Origin: a virus
Taxonomy: Duplodnaviria; Heunggongvirae; Uroviricota; Caudoviricetes
DNA: 5,626 nucleotides
Reading direction: 5' to 3' (one strand)
Virus record (IMG/VR): IMGVR_UViG_2645727555_000026
Coordinates: 1-5,626 of that record
The position numbers were made by a program, and so were the translations under genes. This document shows, piece after piece, positions 1-5,626 of this stretch (position 1 is its first letter; the number at the start of each line of letters is the position of its first letter). A model generated the notes under the pieces. The model was not told the origin of the DNA and searched no databases. It saw only the letters and a program-made list of their open reading frames with translations.

Positions 1-310
1 CTGGCTGACCACGTACAATATTGATTTCATCAAACTGCTCGTCATCAATGAGCACTCCCGCATGCGTCAGCGCATCCAGCGGTGCTTTCAGAATATTGTC
101 CAGGTCACGACGACGCTTATCCGGTGGCTCTGCAATAATTTTTATTGCCAGCCGTCCGGACAGGCTTAATTTCAGTCGCTGCTGGCGAACAATAAGCGCC
201 ACTGCCCGGCGATAACGCTCCCCGGCTTTTGATACAAAATATGTGCTGCCACGGCGTCGCCAGTAAGTGTTCACCGTCGGCGGGTAAGGTAAAACCAAAT
301 CTATGAGCAT
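1..310 (-). CDS. rusA: Crossover junction endodeoxyribonuclease RusA-like Holliday junction resolvase; partial, C-terminus beyond the left window edge
   Basis: Hand translation of the minus strand from ATG at 310..308 gives MLIDLVLPYPPTVNTYWRRRGSTYFVSKAGERYRRAVALIVRQQRLKLSLSGRLAIKIIAEPPDKRRRDLDNILKAPLDALTHAGVLIDDEQFDEINIVRGQP, open to position 1. It shows the RusA hallmarks as I recall them (PP.N.Y near the N-terminus, the acidic DKRRRDLDN block, DALT.AGV..DD). It is not in the ORF track because it has no in-window stop. It begins 12 nt downstream of the DUF968 stop. Confidence 0.85.
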   Translation of the reverse strand, partial: MLIDLVLPYPPTVNTYWRRRGSTYFVSKAGERYRRAVALIVRQQRLKLSLSGRLAIKIIAEPPDKRRRDLDNILKAPLDALTHAGVLIDDEQFDEINIVRGQP

Positions 311-322
311 CAGTCACCTCTT

Positions 323-1372
323 TTACCCGAGCACGCCGGTTGCAAAGGCGTGATCAAGAAAACGAAAAATTAACTCAATCTGAGAGCCGTACTTTTTCTC
401 AAACTCCAGCGGGTCTGCATGAAGTTCGTTGTGGTGCTCCCGGCACAACGGTAACGTGAAAATATCGTGGGCCTTTGTCCCCATTCCCCCCTGACCATGA
501 CCAATCAGGTGATGCGGATCGTCAGCAGGCTTACCACAACACGCACACGGCTGTGTCTTTACCCAGCGCGTGTATTTCTCGTTAACCCAGCGGCGACGTT
601 TAGGTCGTTTCATGAAAGATTCCGGAGACTCAGGATCAACGGCAATGCTGACCACCGTCTTTTCCTGTGGTGGGTTCTGTTGCTGGTGGGCGTGAGGCAG
701 CGGCGCAAGATTTTTTGTGCGCTGCTTCAGTATGCTGGTGGCGGTCTGCTCTCCCGGTACGATGTCGCTTTCACGGTACACTGAGCGGATTTTTTCCGCA
801 CGCAACCCCAGCGAACGACGTAATACCGCTTCCGGTAGCGCGTCCGCCACCTGATTGCGGACCGCCCACCAGGATAATTCAGCCAGAGATAATTCACGCT
901 CCTGCGTACCGCATATTGCGTGACCGATGACGTCAATCATCCATGCTGACAGGTTTTGATGAGCAAGTTGCTCGAGTGATTCGGATGTCTGGTCACGCAG
1001 CTGGTTGTCGCAGTGCCAGCACAACACCATTGCGCCGGTACCATAACGGTGAATAACGGTTTCACTGTGATGATAATCGCCGTGTGGCCACTGGCAGGAT
1101 TTAACATGGCGCAGTAACCAGTCAGACAATGCGCCAGCGCCACCAGCAGCACGAATCACCCGTGCGTTACTGAAAAACGGCAGCAATGTTTTGTCTTCCA
1201 CTAGCGGCTGGCGAACGGCAGGGACGATGCCGGACGGCAGATTACGCATGCTTTTCGGTTCCGGCTCCACCAGTACCCGGGTATTGTGGAATACCGGCAT
1301 GGATTCACGGCCCGGCTTAACGATCACCAGCCCGAGTTCCGGTACCAGAACAGGTCGAAGTAATACCCGCAC
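323..1372 (-). CDS. Phage nin-region protein, DUF968-like (YdfU-like), with a C-terminal HNH-like Cys/His metal-binding motif
   Basis: 349-aa ORF from the track, GTG start at 1372 preceded by a GGAGGT Shine-Dalgarno. The C-terminal segment CACCGKPADDPHHLIGHG...LPLCREHHNELH is a Cys/His cluster of the HNH-endonuclease-like type. The start overlaps the stop of the upstream ORF (TAA-C-GTG) and the gene is immediately followed by rusA. Family assignment is from memory, not a search. Confidence 0.75.
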   Translation of the reverse strand: MRVLLRPVLVPELGLVIVKPGRESMPVFHNTRVLVEPEPKSMRNLPSGIVPAVRQPLVEDKTLLPFFSNARVIRAAGGAGALSDWLLRHVKSCQWPHGDYHHSETVIHRYGTGAMVLCWHCDNQLRDQTSESLEQLAHQNLSAWMIDVIGHAICGTQERELSLAELSWWAVRNQVADALPEAVLRRSLGLRAEKIRSVYRESDIVPGEQTATSILKQRTKNLAPLPHAHQQQNPPQEKTVVSIAVDPESPESFMKRPKRRRWVNEKYTRWVKTQPCACCGKPADDPHHLIGHGQGGMGTKAHDIFTLPLCREHHNELHADPLEFEKKYGSQIELIFRFLDHAFATGVLG

Positions 1373-1373
1373 G

Positions 1374-1646
1374 TTACCTCCAGATGCGTTGCTGGAATGT
1401 GCGGGACGGACGCGGCGGGCGTTCGGAATAAAGGAGCCTGACGTAGATTATCCAGTGACGGTAGTCGAGGCTAAGGGCTTTCTTAAACTCATACCCACGT
1501 CTGCGGTAGTTATGAATCAGCCATTCGGCCTGTTCTTCAGTGCAGGGATCGTGCTGATACCAGTCATATTTGAATGTGTGAGAACACCGCCCTTGCCTGC
1601 TGGCAGGGGCGATATCAGAATTGTGATGTTTGGTATTGTGCGCCAT
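1374..1646 (-). CDS. Hypothetical small phage protein, about 90 aa; an alternative TTG start at 1700 would give 108 aa
   Basis: ORF from the track (1374..1700) with an internal ATG at 1646 (MAHNTKHHNSD...). Its TAA stop at 1376..1374 abuts the DUF968 GTG start, suggesting translational coupling. No recognisable family motif and no strong SD for either start, so start and function are uncertain. Confidence 0.5.
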   Translation of the reverse strand: MAHNTKHHNSDIAPASRQGRCSHTFKYDWYQHDPCTEEQAEWLIHNYRRRGYEFKKALSLDYRHWIIYVRLLYSERPPRPSRTFQQRIWR

Positions 1647-1716
1647 CGGTTTTCTCTGCTGGCGCAGCAGGTGCCAGTTGTTCAAGCTGGCGTGCGGCAA
1701 TATTGTCTCTGATTTC

Positions 1717-1746
1717 TGTTGTCGTCAACAGGCAACGTGCTATCAT
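1717..1746 (+). promoter_or_regulatory. Putative sigma70 promoter of parDE overlapping a short palindrome (possible ParD operator), inside a divergent promoter region
   Basis: TTGTCG (1719-1724), 16-nt spacer, TATCAT (1741-1746), about 35 nt upstream of the parD ATG. TGTTG (1717-1721) and CAACA (1726-1730) form an inverted repeat around the -35. On the opposite strand TTGACG (complement of 1721-1726) could serve as a -35 for the leftward operon. Pattern-based only. Confidence 0.35.
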
Positions 1747-1781
1747 CGAATGGTGTTCTATCCTACTCCGTGAGGTTTACC

Positions 1782-2039
1782 ATGCGTACAACCCAACAAT
1801 TCAGCATTACATTAACTAACGAAATGGCTGACATGGTGCGCGCCCGTGTGGCTTCCGGTGCCTATGCTTCAGAAAGCGAGGTCATTCGTGAAGGGCTTCG
1901 CGCACTGAATGAGCGCGATAAAGCAATCGAAGCGTGGTTAACGCATTCAGCCGCCCCCTCTCTTGATTCTATCCGCGAAAACCCAAACAACGGACGCTCC
2001 ATTTCACAGGTTCGCGCCGCGATTCGATCCGGGAAGTAA
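1782..2039 (+). CDS. parD: Type II antitoxin, ParD-like (ribbon-helix-helix, COG3609 type)
   Basis: 85 aa from ATG 1782 with GAGG SD 6 nt upstream (the track's upstream TTG start at 1719 is less likely). Sequence MRTTQQFSITLTNEMADMVRARVASGAYASESEVIREGLRALNERDKAIEAWL matches the ParD-type motif (..SASEVIR..LR.L.ER..). The stop lies 5 nt before the toxin start, the usual antitoxin-first TA layout. Confidence 0.85.
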   Translation: MRTTQQFSITLTNEMADMVRARVASGAYASESEVIREGLRALNERDKAIEAWLTHSAAPSLDSIRENPNNGRSISQVRAAIRSGK

Positions 2040-2044
2040 TCTGC

Positions 2045-2344
2045 ATGACATATGAAGTCATCATTACTCCTGAGGCCGAAGAACAAATAATCAACCTGCA
2101 CAGATATATAACGGAGAAAGCAGGGAACGTCATTGCTGACAATTTTGCCAATGCGCTTCTTGATTATCTTGATGGGTTTTCTACATTCCCGCATCGGGGC
2201 AATAAACGCGATGATATTCGCCAGGGGATGCGGGTAACTCATTTCCGCCACAGAACGATTATTGCTTTTGCCGTTGATGGCAGAAAAGTCTTTATTGTCG
2301 GTATCTATCATGGTGGGCAAAGTTATGAAACCGATTTCTTATAA
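2045..2344 (+). CDS. parE: Type II toxin, ParE/RelE superfamily (ParE-like)
   Basis: 99 aa, MTYEVIITPEAEEQIINLHRYI...FPHRGNKRDDIRQGMRVTHFRHRTIIAFAVDGRKVFIVGIYHGGQSY. Size and conserved pattern (Y.V.IT..AE.D, P..G..R.D.R.G.R, HR..I.F.V.G..V.I..I.HG.Q) are typical of ParE toxins. Immediately follows the ParD-like gene. Confidence 0.88.
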   Translation: MTYEVIITPEAEEQIINLHRYITEKAGNVIADNFANALLDYLDGFSTFPHRGNKRDDIRQGMRVTHFRHRTIIAFAVDGRKVFIVGIYHGGQSYETDFL

Positions 2345-2425
2345 ACTTTTACCCACATCATTCCGGTGTTAGAATTAACCGTCCGCCCCCCTCTCTTACT
2401 GGCGGATTCGTAGGCTATATAAATC

Positions 2426-2462
2426 AAAGATCCCGGCTCATGTTTGTGTCGGGATCTTTTTT
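2426..2462. terminator. Rho-independent terminator hairpin, probably bidirectional, shared by the convergent parDE unit and the minus-strand three-gene operon
   Basis: Perfect 10-bp inverted repeat AAAGATCCCG (2426-2435) / CGGGATCTTT (2450-2459) around a 14-nt loop, followed by a T-run on the plus strand (TTTTTT, 2457-2462) and preceded by an A/T-rich tract that gives a U-rich tail on the minus strand. It sits 80 bp after the parE stop and about 10 bp after the small-peptide stop. Confidence 0.7.
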
Positions 2463-2469
2463 CGGCGAT

Positions 2470-2553
2470 TTATCCCCAGCGGCAAATCGAATACACCACC
2501 AGCGCCACCGCCATCGCAATTCCTACCGTTGTGAATGCTTCAGGCCTGGTCAT
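2470..2553 (-). CDS. Unannotated 27-aa hydrophobic (single-pass membrane-type) peptide, third gene of the coupled operon
   Basis: Hand translation of the minus strand from ATG 2553..2551: [30 protein letters not shown] at 2472..2470. The ATG overlaps the TGA stop of the upstream 114-aa ORF (ATGA), with GGAGG (complement of 2563-2567) 9 nt upstream. A hydrophobic core is followed by a basic/aromatic RW end, and the terminator hairpin follows directly. Below the ORF-track size cutoff. Confidence 0.5.
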
Positions 2554-2894
2554 CGTAAAACATCCTCCACGCTTGTCAGTCCGTTTCGCTCCAGGTAGTC
2601 CATCGCCTTATCCGGCAGTTTGCAGTCCGGCTTCGCTTTCCTCAGTTGCCAGGCTAACTGCTTTACCTGCATAGTTAACTCGTCGACCAGACGCTGATAC
2701 CCCACTGGTTTGTATTCATGCAATTTACCGGCTGGCTCTGCTGCCAGCGATGCCAGTGCGATTTCCAGAACAGCAATATCCATCTTATATGTGCGGATGA
2801 TGTCATGGTCGATTGTGCCCGGTATACACAGTCTCTGTGCTTCAATAGTCTCCTCTGCGTGAGCTATTAACTGCTCTCTGGTAATAGTGGTCAT
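2550..2894 (-). CDS. Hypothetical 114-aa protein (predicted mostly alpha-helical), middle gene of the coupled operon
   Basis: ORF from the track. ATG at 2894..2892 overlaps the TGA stop of the upstream 171-aa gene (ATGA) and an AAGGA SD lies about 9 nt upstream. No family motif recognised. Confidence 0.7.
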
Positions 2895-3406
2895 GCCGCG
2901 TTTCCTTCTTTCTTATTAACAATTACACCGTCATATATTTCATTAAGGTGCCCTCTCAACTCCATGCGCCTTAATGCAGACAACATGTAATCGCATTCAA
3001 CCTGCTTATTTCCAGTAAATGGCTTATCGTCAGGATTACCCCAACAGCAATTACCCTTGGGCCACCCATGTACTTTCCGTACTCTTCCGTTAACAACGTG
3101 AAGTAATCCCCAGCCAGGTGGTAAATCCTCAATTGAAATAATTCCCGGCTCACTAATAAAGAATCGCCAGTCGCCCATTCCAAGAGACGGATTTTTACGA
3201 AAACGCTTTTTTCTATCTGCCAACAAGTCAGCACGAGAACATTTCGCCTCTATCAGGCATGATGCTGAATTTCTGAATCCCATAGCATCTGGCTGTTCTC
3301 CGGTACTGGTTACAGCTATAAAGCGGTCATGAAAACAAACCTTGAACCCGTTGCGCTTAAGGAACTTGTACGCAATCTGACAGAGTTCGCGGTGTGTTAA
3401 CGCCAT
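2891..3406 (-). CDS. Putative PD-(D/E)XK-fold nuclease-like protein (171 aa), first gene of the coupled operon
   Basis: The track ORF 2891..3436 starts at a TTG; ATG at 3406 with a strong AGGAG SD (CAAAGGAGAGTGAT-ATG) is the more likely start. Sequence: helix with Glu ([17 protein letters not shown]), beta-strand [12 protein letters not shown] (D40, codon 3289..3287), then 13 residues on, CLIEAKCS (E53-x-K55, codons 3250..3242), i.e. a PD...(D/E)XK arrangement. The C-terminal half has no recognised motif. Fold assignment is a motif-level inference. Confidence 0.7.
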
Positions 3407-3551
3407 ATCACTCTCCTTTGATGCGAATGCCAGCAAGCCAGTTTCTTATGCCGATATATTCAGCGTTCCTGAAACCGCTTTTTACATACGCTGGGCTAAA
3501 AATGAAGTTATCGCCAGAGATCGCGAAGACTGGAAGCGCATCTCCGCATCA

Positions 3552-5144
3552 ATGCGCAAACAACCTGATGCGCTTCGCTACAGCCGCCAGACTATTTTTG
3601 GCCTTGTCCGTGAACGCCCGATCGACATTCACAAAGATCCCGTGGCACTGAACAAATACATCACTGAATACCTGACTACAAAGGGCGTGTTTGAAGATGA
3701 CGAAGGAACAAATCAGGGCACAGCTAATACTCTCTCGTCGCCAGTACCAGAAACTGACGCAGTGGAAACGGCAATTCAGGACAACGAAAAAACCGAATGC
3801 AAAGTGGAAGTCGAATCATCTGTAGAGCGTGAGGGGCCGTTCTACTTCCTCTTCAGCGACAAGGATGGCGAAAAATACGGTCGTGCAAACAAACTTTCTG
3901 GTCTGAATAAGGCGCTGGCTGCAGGGGCTACTGAAATCACGAAAGAAGAATATTTTGCCCGCAAAAACGGTACATACTCAGGTTCACAACAAAATACTGG
4001 TGCATCTGACACGATCGCACAACCGGAGCCGGTAAAAGTTACCGCTGACGAAGTAAACAAAATTATGCAGGCAGCCAATATCAGCCAGCCTGACGCCGAT
4101 AAGTTGCTTGCTGTATCACGTGGTGAATTTGTTGCAGGGATTAGCGACCCGAATGATCCGAAATGGGTGAAGGAGATTGAAACCCGCGATTCAGTGAATC
4201 AGAACCAGCAAGAAACGGAACAGAACGACCAGAAAGCGGAACAAAACAGCCCAAATGCGTTACAAAACGAGCCAGAAACGAAACAATCCGAACCAGTAGT
4301 GCAACAGGAACCGGAAAAAGTCTGCACCGCCTGCGGTCAGAGCGGTGGCGGCAACTGCCCCGATTGTGGCGCTGTCATGGGCAACGCAACATACCAGGAA
4401 ACATTCGATGAAGAGAATCAGGTTGAAGCTCAGGAGAATGATCCGGAGGAAATGGAAGGCGCTGAACATCCACACAAGGAGAACACTGGCGGCAATCAGC
4501 ATCACGCCAGCGATAGTGAAACTGGCGAGGCGGCAGATCCCTTAATTAAGGTGAATGGTCATCACAATCTCACATCCACCAGCAGAGCGGGGATTCATCT
4601 GATGATCGACATTGAAACCATGGGAAAAAATCCCAATGCCGCGATTATCTCAATAGGCGCAATATTTTTCGATCCACAAACCGGAGATATGGGACCGGAA
4701 TTTAGCAAGACCATCGATCTGGATACTGCTGGCGGAGTTATTGATCGTGACGTCATTAAATGGTGGCTGAAGCAATCACGTGAAGCGCAGTCTGCCATTC
4801 TGACCGATGAAATCCCGTTAGATGATGCACTACTGCAATTGCGGGAATTTATCGCCGAAAACTCCGGTGAATTTTTTGTTCAGGTCTGGGGAAATGGAGC
4901 CAACTTCGACAACGTGATTTTACGCCGTTCATACGAACGGCAGGGGATCCCCTGCCCCTGGCACTACCACAACGATCGCGATGTACGCACAATCGTTGAG
5001 CTAGGGAAAGCCATAGACTTCGATGCCAGAACAGCTATCCCATTCGAAGGTGAGCGCCACAATGCACTTGATGACGCCCGTTACCAGGCAAAATACGTTT
5101 CAGCTATCTGGCAAAAACTGATCCCGAGTCAGGCTGATTTTTAA
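3552..5144 (+). CDS. Multidomain phage protein (530 aa): N-terminal region of unknown function, acidic Gln/Glu-rich low-complexity linker, C-x2-C-x8-C-x2-C zinc ribbon, C-terminal DEDDh (DnaQ-like) 3'-5' exonuclease domain
   Basis: Long ORF from the track; 3552 is the first in-frame ATG after an upstream stop, with no obvious SD. Zinc ribbon CTACGQSGGGNCPDCG at about 4321-4370. Exonuclease motifs: Exo I MIDIETMG (about 4602-4625), Exo II VWGNGANFDNVIL, Exo III HNALDDARYQA near the C-terminus. Low-complexity segment NQNQQETEQNDQKAEQNSPNALQNEPETKQSEPVVQQEPEK at about 4195-4320. Confidence 0.85.
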   Translation: MRKQPDALRYSRQTIFGLVRERPIDIHKDPVALNKYITEYLTTKGVFEDDEGTNQGTANTLSSPVPETDAVETAIQDNEKTECKVEVESSVEREGPFYFLFSDKDGEKYGRANKLSGLNKALAAGATEITKEEYFARKNGTYSGSQQNTGASDTIAQPEPVKVTADEVNKIMQAANISQPDADKLLAVSRGEFVAGISDPNDPKWVKEIETRDSVNQNQQETEQNDQKAEQNSPNALQNEPETKQSEPVVQQEPEKVCTACGQSGGGNCPDCGAVMGNATYQETFDEENQVEAQENDPEEMEGAEHPHKENTGGNQHHASDSETGEAADPLIKVNGHHNLTSTSRAGIHLMIDIETMGKNPNAAIISIGAIFFDPQTGDMGPEFSKTIDLDTAGGVIDRDVIKWWLKQSREAQSAILTDEIPLDDALLQLREFIAENSGEFFVQVWGNGANFDNVILRRSYERQGIPCPWHYHNDRDVRTIVELGKAIDFDARTAIPFEGERHNALDDARYQAKYVSAIWQKLIPSQADF

Positions 5145-5213
5145 TGTTCAACCATCGCCGGTTGTGACTGGTATTCTGCAACCGGCCCTCATCTGATGTA
5201 AGAGATAAAAGCG

Positions 5214-5465
5214 ATGAGCGAAGTAATCATGATTGTCTCTCCCGGTAAATGGGTATCTGAAGAACAGCTAATTGCACTGAAAGGAATAAAAAAGGGAACG
5301 CTAAAAAAAGCCAGAGAAAAATCGTTTATGGAAGGAAGGGAATATAAGCATGTCGCCCATGACTGTATGCCATGGGATAACAGCCCATGCTTTTACAACC
5401 TGGAAGAAATAGATCGCTGGATTGAACGCCAGGCATCAGCAAGACCAAGGCGTCATCTTACTTGA
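5214..5465 (+). CDS. xis: Excisionase-like (Xis-type) small DNA-binding protein
   Basis: 83-aa ORF immediately upstream of, and co-oriented with, the integrase gene. Contains a GREY motif (MEGREYKHV) reminiscent of the lambda Xis DGREYLF segment. Assignment rests mainly on size and position; an alternative start at ATG 5229 is possible. Confidence 0.6.
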   Translation: MSEVIMIVSPGKWVSEEQLIALKGIKKGTLKKAREKSFMEGREYKHVAHDCMPWDNSPCFYNLEEIDRWIERQASARPRRHLT

Positions 5466-5499
5466 GTAAAAACAATACTAACCAATGAGAGAAGCTGAA

Positions 5500-5626
5500 A
5501 TGAAATATCCGACAGGCGTGGAAAACCATGGTGGGAAATTACGTATCTGGTTTGTTTATAAAGGTGTAAGAGTCCGGGAAAATCTTGGGGTTCCTGACAC
5601 AGCAAAAAACAGGCGCATTGCAGGTG
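5500..5626 (+). CDS. int: Tyrosine integrase (lambda Int family), N-terminal arm-binding region only; continues past the right window edge
   Basis: ATG at 5500 with a GAGAGAAG SD-like stretch upstream. Hand translation MKYPTGVENHGGKLRIWFVYKGVRVRENLGVPDTAKNRRIAG resembles the N-terminus of enterobacterial prophage integrases (PTGVE..G..RIWF.YKG.R.RE.L). Open to the window end. Confidence 0.75.
   Translation, partial: MKYPTGVENHGGKLRIWFVYKGVRVRENLGVPDTAKNRRIAG

Follow-up and report, generated by a model that had tools for sequence, protein, structure and literature searches.

The window analysed here, a 5,626-bp stretch of E. coli prophage DNA taken at its full length, carries three open reading frames (ORFs) on the minus strand that are in all likelihood independent accessory cassettes of lambdoid early operons (an MmcB-like nuclease, a mosaic helical protein and a coupled membrane peptide), stranded in a decayed prophage. 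The evidence consists of the ORFs themselves, the fold and the conserved catalytic residues of the first product, the coding selection on the peptide, the non-conserved linkage of the three genes, and a deletion in the prophage that carries them. The region would represent the distal end of an accessory array of early lambdoid genes, of the type found in exo-xis/'ea' left arms and nin-like right arms, in which three independently assorting cassettes are joined, like several of their neighbours, by translational-coupling junctions.

Arrangement and linkage of the three genes

The ORF listing places a 171-aa gene with an ATG start at 3406-2891, a 114-aa gene at 2894-2550 and, with additional coding evidence, a 27-codon ORF for a predicted single-pass membrane peptide at 2553-2470, all on the minus strand. 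Read on this strand, ATGA stop/start overlaps join the first gene to the second (2891-2894) and the second to the third (2550-2553). Purine runs resembling Shine-Dalgarno (SD) sequences lie upstream of each ATG: AGGAG at 6 nt for the 171-aa gene, AAGGA at 8 nt for the 114-aa gene, and GGAGG at about 10 nt for the 27-codon ORF. The initial annotation, which described three minus-strand genes with two ATGA overlaps and an SD for each, was correct in these respects. Its statement that the genes are richer in AT than the neighbouring DUF968 gene (54.8% GC) holds for the 171-aa gene only (44.4% GC), and not for the 114-aa gene (49.9%) or the 27-codon ORF (54.8%). A longer version of the 171-aa gene that would start from a TTG at 3436 (181 aa) was discarded because the Ea22-like gene of the relatives stops at the equivalent of position 3408 and all homologous gene calls begin at the ATG.

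Complete E. coli genomes (5,426) were searched for these genes, with coverage of at least 80% applied to the 171-aa gene and to a query spanning the trio. The 171-aa gene is present in 910 genomes (250 of its 1,300 places are on plasmids), the 114-aa gene in 563, and the 27-codon ORF in 1,609 (~30%; 3,061 places), with up to 7 copies per genome. The contiguous trio is found in 49 genomes, which amounts to ~5% of those that carry the 171-aa gene and ~9% of those that carry the 114-aa gene. The trio is not a conserved unit. Co-occurrence of the three genes across genomes, which had been proposed as a check that could refute the idea of one functional three-gene module, is not conserved (49 versus 910, 563 and 1,609), and with a linkage of 49/910 and many alternative partners the module itself is not borne out. 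Within the lineage of the 49 genomes, the three genes may interact functionally.

The identical 171-aa protein was found by assembly look-up in 10 distinct neighbourhoods, with an Ead_Ea22 gene upstream in 7 of them and, downstream, a DUF551 gene in 6 and the 114-aa gene in 2. Contexts of the 171-aa gene include P22-like left (pL) arms (cIII, kil, Erf, SSB, Abc2 ... int), replication-side arms (replication genes, DUF1627, DUF977 ... DUF968, RusA, Q), Stx phages and P1/P7-like plasmids; in the Stx2 phage 1717, it is flanked by an Ea22-like gene on one side and by a 44-aa gene plus DUF551 on the other. The gene begins 1 nt past the upstream stop in all 10 neighbourhoods, and overlaps the next gene by 4 nt in 9 of the 10. 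Since these 4-nt and 1-nt junctions recur between cassettes, ATGA coupling is a trait of the array and not the mark of a system. Blocks of similarity end within ~20 nt of the junction between the 171-aa and 114-aa genes: matches to other phages stop at window position 2880 for the 171-aa cassette and at 2898 for the 114-aa cassette, and the segment that is common to both adjoining cassettes (2880-2898, minus strand), which comprises the SD, the ATGA and the first codons, constitutes a mosaic boundary.

The array resembles the exo-xis/'ea' genes of lambda and Stx phages (Ea22, orf60a, orf61, orf63, orf73) and the nin region, which are non-essential, early, tightly packed and mosaic; the Ea22 genes of the exo-xis region have been described as mosaic (PMC10834534). 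The likeness extends to the cassette boundaries, which fall at gene junctions, and to the 171-aa gene, which in phage 1717, as in many others, is immediately preceded by an Ea22-like gene. Unlike the studied exo-xis genes, the trio is located on the replication-side arm, and none of its products is among those proteins; a paper on modelling of the exo-xis region mentions no nuclease and no transmembrane protein.

The initial annotation suggested that the trio might be one compact abortive-infection or exclusion system, with a nuclease as sensor or effector and a membrane peptide as second effector. The tight ATGA coupling of the genes, the nuclease fold of the 171-aa product, the membrane peptide as last product, the toxin-antitoxin cassette (ParDE) that adjoins the trio, and the retention of the trio in 49 genomes could all be accommodated by such a system, and there is a superficial likeness to the nuclease-plus-membrane-effector systems of PADLOC in that a nuclease and a small membrane protein are encoded together in a prophage. 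This interpretation is nevertheless extremely improbable, considering that each gene has many alternative partners, that the trio is kept in just ~5% of 171-aa and ~9% of 114-aa carrier genomes, and that it forms part of a lytic early operon and lacks a separate promoter-like site. The 27-aa peptide also occurs in the virulent phage Av-05, and the GC contents of the three genes are unequal (44, 50 and 55%). A search of PADLOC-DB v2 with all three proteins (E <= 0.1) gave 0 matches; the trio differs from the PADLOC systems in matching no model, in lacking conserved linkage and in that no promoter-like site was found for it. The suggestion of a defence module does not withstand this evidence, while the broader description of all three as uncharacterised phage accessory genes is borne out.

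The 171-aa and 114-aa proteins

The 171-aa protein is identical to gp06 of Stx2 phage 1717 and to Upf89.0-type proteins of P7. It has no match in Pfam (E <= 0.1), NCBIfam or PADLOC, and its homologues across the Enterobacterales are named 'hypothetical protein' in every case. In PHROGs it belongs to function-unknown families (phrog_9263/631), with a weak match to a 'DNA repair protein' family. A profile made from 29 homologues retrieved 3,258 cluster representatives at 50% identity, and the AlphaFold model obtained from the profile-derived alignment (pLDDT 83, pTM 0.78) contains an alpha-beta-beta-beta-alpha-beta core, which is the fold of the PD-(D/E)XK phosphodiesterase superfamily. The QPD...LIEAK motif supplies D40, E53 and K55, which are (nearly) invariant in homologues; in the model, D40 is just ahead of the strand formed by residues 41-45, and E53 and K55 are at the end of the strand formed by residues 48-54. 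Among 107 representatives (35-61% identity), D40 is invariant and E37, E53, K55, R58, D64 and K67 are at least 90% conserved. The solved structure closest to the model is the MmcB-like member 3DNX, which aligns over the full domain at 22% identity, and a profile alignment matches D40 and E53-x-K55-x-S-R-x-D-F to the same motif in 3DNX, with E = 0.3 only. Because the fold model, the motif alignment with 3DNX and the conservation of D40, E53 and K55 agree, the protein as modelled is assigned to the PD-(D/E)XK fold class, and the nuclease-type signature that the initial annotation had recognized in the first product is confirmed by fold and conserved motif residues.

The same model places the 171-aa protein nearest to the MmcB-like family; with its relatives, it is predicted to form a divergent, phage-borne sister group of that family, a placement derived from structure and transitive hits. 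The 171-aa protein falls below the gathering threshold of PF06319/DUF1052 (Pfam scan, E <= 0.1). The MmcB-like model PF06319 is matched at E <= 0.01 by 11 of the 107 family representatives, one of which (P0264) exceeds the cutoff (23.1 bits versus 22), and phage proteins that bear the name MmcB family DNA repair protein are among the viral structural neighbours of the 171-aa protein. Fold and catalytic motif are shared with the MmcB-like family (PF06319; 3DNX, SPO1766; Caulobacter MmcB), whose classic DUF1052 members are mostly chromosomal and belong to alpha-proteobacteria (PMC3424549), whereas the 171-aa protein is sub-threshold in Pfam, phage-borne and from Enterobacterales. MmcB of Caulobacter is a PD-(D/E)XK endonuclease required for resistance to mitomycin C and cisplatin (PMC9578287); a role in the SOS response and crosslink repair is known only for this Caulobacter protein.

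Weak matches to the Pfam Hjc model cover the catalytic motif in 21 of the 107 representatives (best E 1.3e-4), and recombination genes (Erf/Rad52, SSB, Abc2) are often found near the 171-aa gene in P22-like arms. Both observations would suit a Holliday-junction or branched-DNA resolvase (Hjc-like) that serves phage recombination, in place of an MmcB-like nuclease of the repair type, but we give this alternative little chance. As an MmcB-like enzyme, the 171-aa protein would be a metal-dependent DNA endonuclease that acts through D40, E53 and K55, and it may be made early in lytic growth and act on DNA structures of the phage or the host.

RefSeq marks the 171-aa gene as a 'frameshifted' pseudogene of 179 bp in both E. 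coli 2013C-3342 (locus 9225-9403) and O145:H28 12E115 (locus 13294-13472). The DNA of these copies, which corresponds to window positions 3228-3406, does not differ from the window's intact ORF (100% identity), and judging from this identity the label is probably an annotation error in both genomes.

Homologues of the 114-aa protein were found only in prophages of Escherichia, Shigella and Salmonella, and none has a named function. Their alignment consists of several exchangeable N-terminal segments and one conserved C-terminal region of ~50 residues; PHROG matches of the 114-aa protein are segmental, to families of unknown function, with the C-terminus corresponding to phrog_660. The AF2 model is all-helical, with five helices (pLDDT 75, pTM 0.41), of which the N-terminal hairpin is confident. 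There is no match to Pfam, NCBIfam or PADLOC, and the Ead_Ea22 coiled-coil model (PF13935) is likewise unmatched. A profile search of the PDB returned designed coiled coils only, and Foldseek comparison of the model with the PDB gave nothing below E = 0.7, fold matches being uninformative at a model pTM of 0.41. As far as its sequence indicates, the 114-aa protein resembles in its behaviour the mosaic proteins of the Ea22/Eaa/DUF551 type that are found in this region. It may be an Ea22/Eaa-type protein that serves in binding or as an adaptor, in which the N-terminal hairpin is exchangeable and the C-terminal module is conserved. In ArgO145, a gene for an HNH endonuclease directly precedes the 114-aa gene.

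The 27-codon ORF

The 85-nt segment at 2469-2553, which contains the 27-codon ORF, recurs in many phages and prophages at 74-99% identity, and twelve copies were extracted from differing contexts. The upstream gene may be DUF551, EaA, a 131-aa gene or an 81-aa gene, and the hosts of the ORF include lambdoid prophages, Stx phages, a P1-like phage and the virulent Avunavirus Av-05. The frame of 27 codons is intact in 11 of the 12 copies, with conservative, hydrophobic substitutions; the copy in Shigella phage POCJ13 (locus ~1500-1585) has a TAG stop at codon 3. Differences at codon positions 1, 2 and 3 number 212, 170 and 429, respectively, and Nei-Gojobori dN/dS ranges from 0.08 to 0.79, with values of 0.2 or less for the most diverged pairs. 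The peptide has one hydrophobic helix (best 19-residue Kyte-Doolittle mean of 2.1) and a basic C-terminus. Its third residue is arginine in the window (W3R) and tryptophan in the other copies examined, except that of POCJ13, in which the stop is located there. Because frame and length are kept, differences are biased towards the third position and dN/dS is below 1 in diverged copies, the ORF qualifies as a genuine gene that is subject to purifying selection and encodes a predicted single-pass membrane peptide. The hydropathy and the coding selection together uphold the tiny hydrophobic last product of the initial annotation.

In the annotated loci examined, the ATG of the 27-codon ORF almost always overlaps the preceding stop as ATGA; the overlap is longer in JLK-2012. 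An SD sequence (GGAGGTGAATCAATG) is found ahead of the ORF in most contexts. The ORF would be translated by coupling to whichever gene precedes it, and its 27-aa product would be inserted into the inner membrane as a single pass.

The ORF is unannotated in all RefSeq and phage records examined, and a few GenBank records name the peptide 'bacteriophage protein', one of them for a sequence identical to the version in the window. A search of the literature for this peptide sequence gave no result. Searches of Pfam, NCBIfam and PADLOC gave no match beyond sub-threshold compositional hits to KdpF and DUF883_C, the HOK_GEF model being unmatched in Pfam and NCBIfam, and a search of Rfam (E <= 1) found no RNA family in the three-gene region and two sub-threshold chance matches outside it. 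The possibility of a fusion between DUF551 and the peptide, which was prompted by 121-aa DUF551 proteins in the same cluster as the peptide, was dismissed as a clustering artefact because those 121-aa sequences do not contain the peptide.

The absence of the ORF from the RefSeq and phage annotations examined would also be expected of a conserved non-coding boundary or linker, such as a recombination hotspot or part of a hok promoter, that is open by chance. The ORF lies exactly on a mosaic boundary and immediately upstream of hokD in many prophages, and the stop at codon 3 of the POCJ13 copy points the same way. A non-coding element is unlikely, however, to keep its start, stop and 27-codon length in 11 of 12 contexts while both flanks differ, to accumulate an excess of third-position differences (429 versus 212 and 170), or to have dN/dS well under 1 in diverged pairs. 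The amino acid changes are conservative and hydrophobic, a good SD (GGAGGTGAATCAATG) precedes the ORF in most contexts, and the ORF is present in P1-like and Avunavirus phages, where hok does not accompany it.

As a coding gene, the 27-codon ORF has small, single-helix hydrophobic counterparts in KdpF, AcrZ and the type I toxins (Hok), and hokD adjoins it in many prophages. Hok is controlled by antisense RNA, whereas the sequence of the 27-codon ORF suggests coupling to the upstream gene, and its product has no Hok/Gef match. It is evenly balanced whether the ORF represents an unrecognised, widespread family of small phage membrane proteins, coupled to the Ea22/DUF551-type gene that ends the array and acting early on the host inner membrane or a membrane complex.

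The Avunavirus phages 18-1-2 and Av-05 (virulent Vequintavirinae; locus ~1500-1580) contain the 27-codon ORF together with an EaA/DUF551-type gene, and another gene is located directly 3' of the ORF (TGATAATGA). Since both are present in virulent Vequintavirinae, these cassettes cross between temperate and virulent phages.

Prophage context and significance

Between the trio and a ParD/ParE toxin-antitoxin cassette that is convergent to it (1782-2344, plus strand, identified by profile matches and relatives), a fold calculation found a hairpin with a flanking A-run and T-run (2416-2465, core ~2426-2459, assigned to no strand). The hairpin has a centroid energy of -14.7 kcal/mol (z = -2.3) and is flanked by TTTGATTTAT on the minus strand and by TTTTTT on the plus strand. 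Because its two flanks carry an A-run and a T-run, respectively, it probably terminates transcription from both directions, that of the minus-strand trio and that of parDE. The hairpin of the initial annotation is present and stable, but the consensus terminator scan did not call it; the loop exceeds the limit of that scan. The sequence past the stop codon of the 27-codon ORF is the same in ArgO145, which also has ParDE, and different in hokD contexts; since this sequence tracks ParDE in the loci compared, the hairpin goes with the ParDE cassette and not with the 27-codon ORF.

In related prophages, the slot after the 27-codon ORF and before DUF968 is occupied by hokD in place of ParDE, with or without YgiW/YdeI or rem, and it looks like an exchange site for toxin-antitoxin genes. 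The DUF968 protein (window 323-1372) has a weak HNHc_6 match, and its PHROG is annotated as HNH endonuclease; the RusA gene follows DUF968 and runs off the left end of the window.

Window positions 4-3488 match a prophage of E. coli 2013C-3342 at 99.7% identity; the genes there run cro, YdaT, replication genes, DUF1627, DUF977, several small genes, the Ea22-like gene, the 171-aa gene, the 114-aa gene, convergent ParDE, DUF968 and RusA. Positions 3489-5626 show 100% identity to that end of a Qin/Rac-type prophage which carries exonuclease, xis and int. Both parts occur in one prophage at rspB in O145:H28 12E115, with the junction points 9,460 bp apart, and in this prophage the trio ends a long operon that extends from cro through the replication genes. 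The annotations of 2013C-3342 and 12E115, the intact relatives, show no break between the trio and the early lytic operon.

At the junction (3488/3489, assigned to no strand and located by matches to the parents), the 3' end of the Ea22-like gene is head-to-head with the interior of the exonuclease gene, the right side beginning ~273 codons into its 823 codons. The remnant of the Ea22-like gene (3408-3488, minus strand) comprises the last 26 codons and the stop, and matches both 2013C-3342 and 12E115 at 100%. In the relatives, the 171-aa gene is coupled to this upstream gene (TGAtATG), of which 78 nt of coding sequence remain here at 3411-3488, so the operon does not begin at position 3406 as had been supposed. 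Nor are the three genes in a cargo slot beside the exonuclease/xis module: their adjacency to it is the scar of the 9,460-bp deletion. Through this deletion the prophage lost dicB, its immunity region and replication genes, the greater part of the Ea22-like gene and presumably both early promoters.

The same junction could have arisen as a chimera of the draft assembly, in which case the genes would still reside in an intact prophage. It is of some relevance to this that the window makes up a draft contig of 5,626 bp from end to end, that the exact truncated 530-aa exonuclease product is recorded only in this contig, and that coverage of the window reaches 80% in no complete E. coli genome; the deletion was found once only in the collections searched. 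We nevertheless regard a chimera as quite improbable, for the parents have no common repeat at 3488/3489 that could mislead an assembler, and internal deletions are common in Qin-type prophages at rspB, for example in strain A10. Because no repeat is common to both parents at the junction, the sequence makes a real illegitimate deletion more likely than mis-assembly.

The contig in question is DF970465.1 of the draft assembly GCA_001297725.1 (window 1-5626), and its ends fall in repeated prophage genes, namely RusA on the left and the start of the integrase-side ORF on the right. The 530-aa 'exonuclease' ORF (3552-5144) is a 5'-truncated form of the 823-aa Rac/Qin-type protein with an internal ATG start, and it retains an intact Rv2179c-like 3'-5' exonuclease domain (residues 349-520). 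A separate PHROGs family of 530-aa proteins (phrog_20376) implies that similar truncated forms exist elsewhere.

No promoter-like site was found on the minus strand from 3407 to 3700 by a consensus scan, a crude search that could pass over a weak or non-sigma-70 promoter, and the trio in this window is probably not expressed from a promoter of its own. In intact prophages, the trio would be transcribed within the long cro-side early operon. The proposed illegitimate deletion of 9.46 kb would have removed the immunity and replication region together with both early promoters, and on account of this loss the trio is probably now silent, or expressed by read-through only.

As a dedicated system the trio is not real; as genes, its members are new, uncharacterised representatives of kinds already known. 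A plausible-looking candidate for a defence system is thereby removed. ATGA coupling combined with a nuclease and a membrane peptide is no evidence of a system in lambdoid accessory arrays, where similar coupling is repeatedly found between cassettes whose recombination takes place at the borders of genes. A large nuclease family outside Pfam (~3,300 cluster representatives at 50% identity) is now placed beside the MmcB-like enzymes, and this placement provides a testable activity for a protein of Stx phages and P1/P7-like plasmids. The 27-aa membrane peptide, which is missing from the RefSeq and phage annotations examined, is a candidate for small-protein study, and its family is the sole element of the trio of some wider interest.
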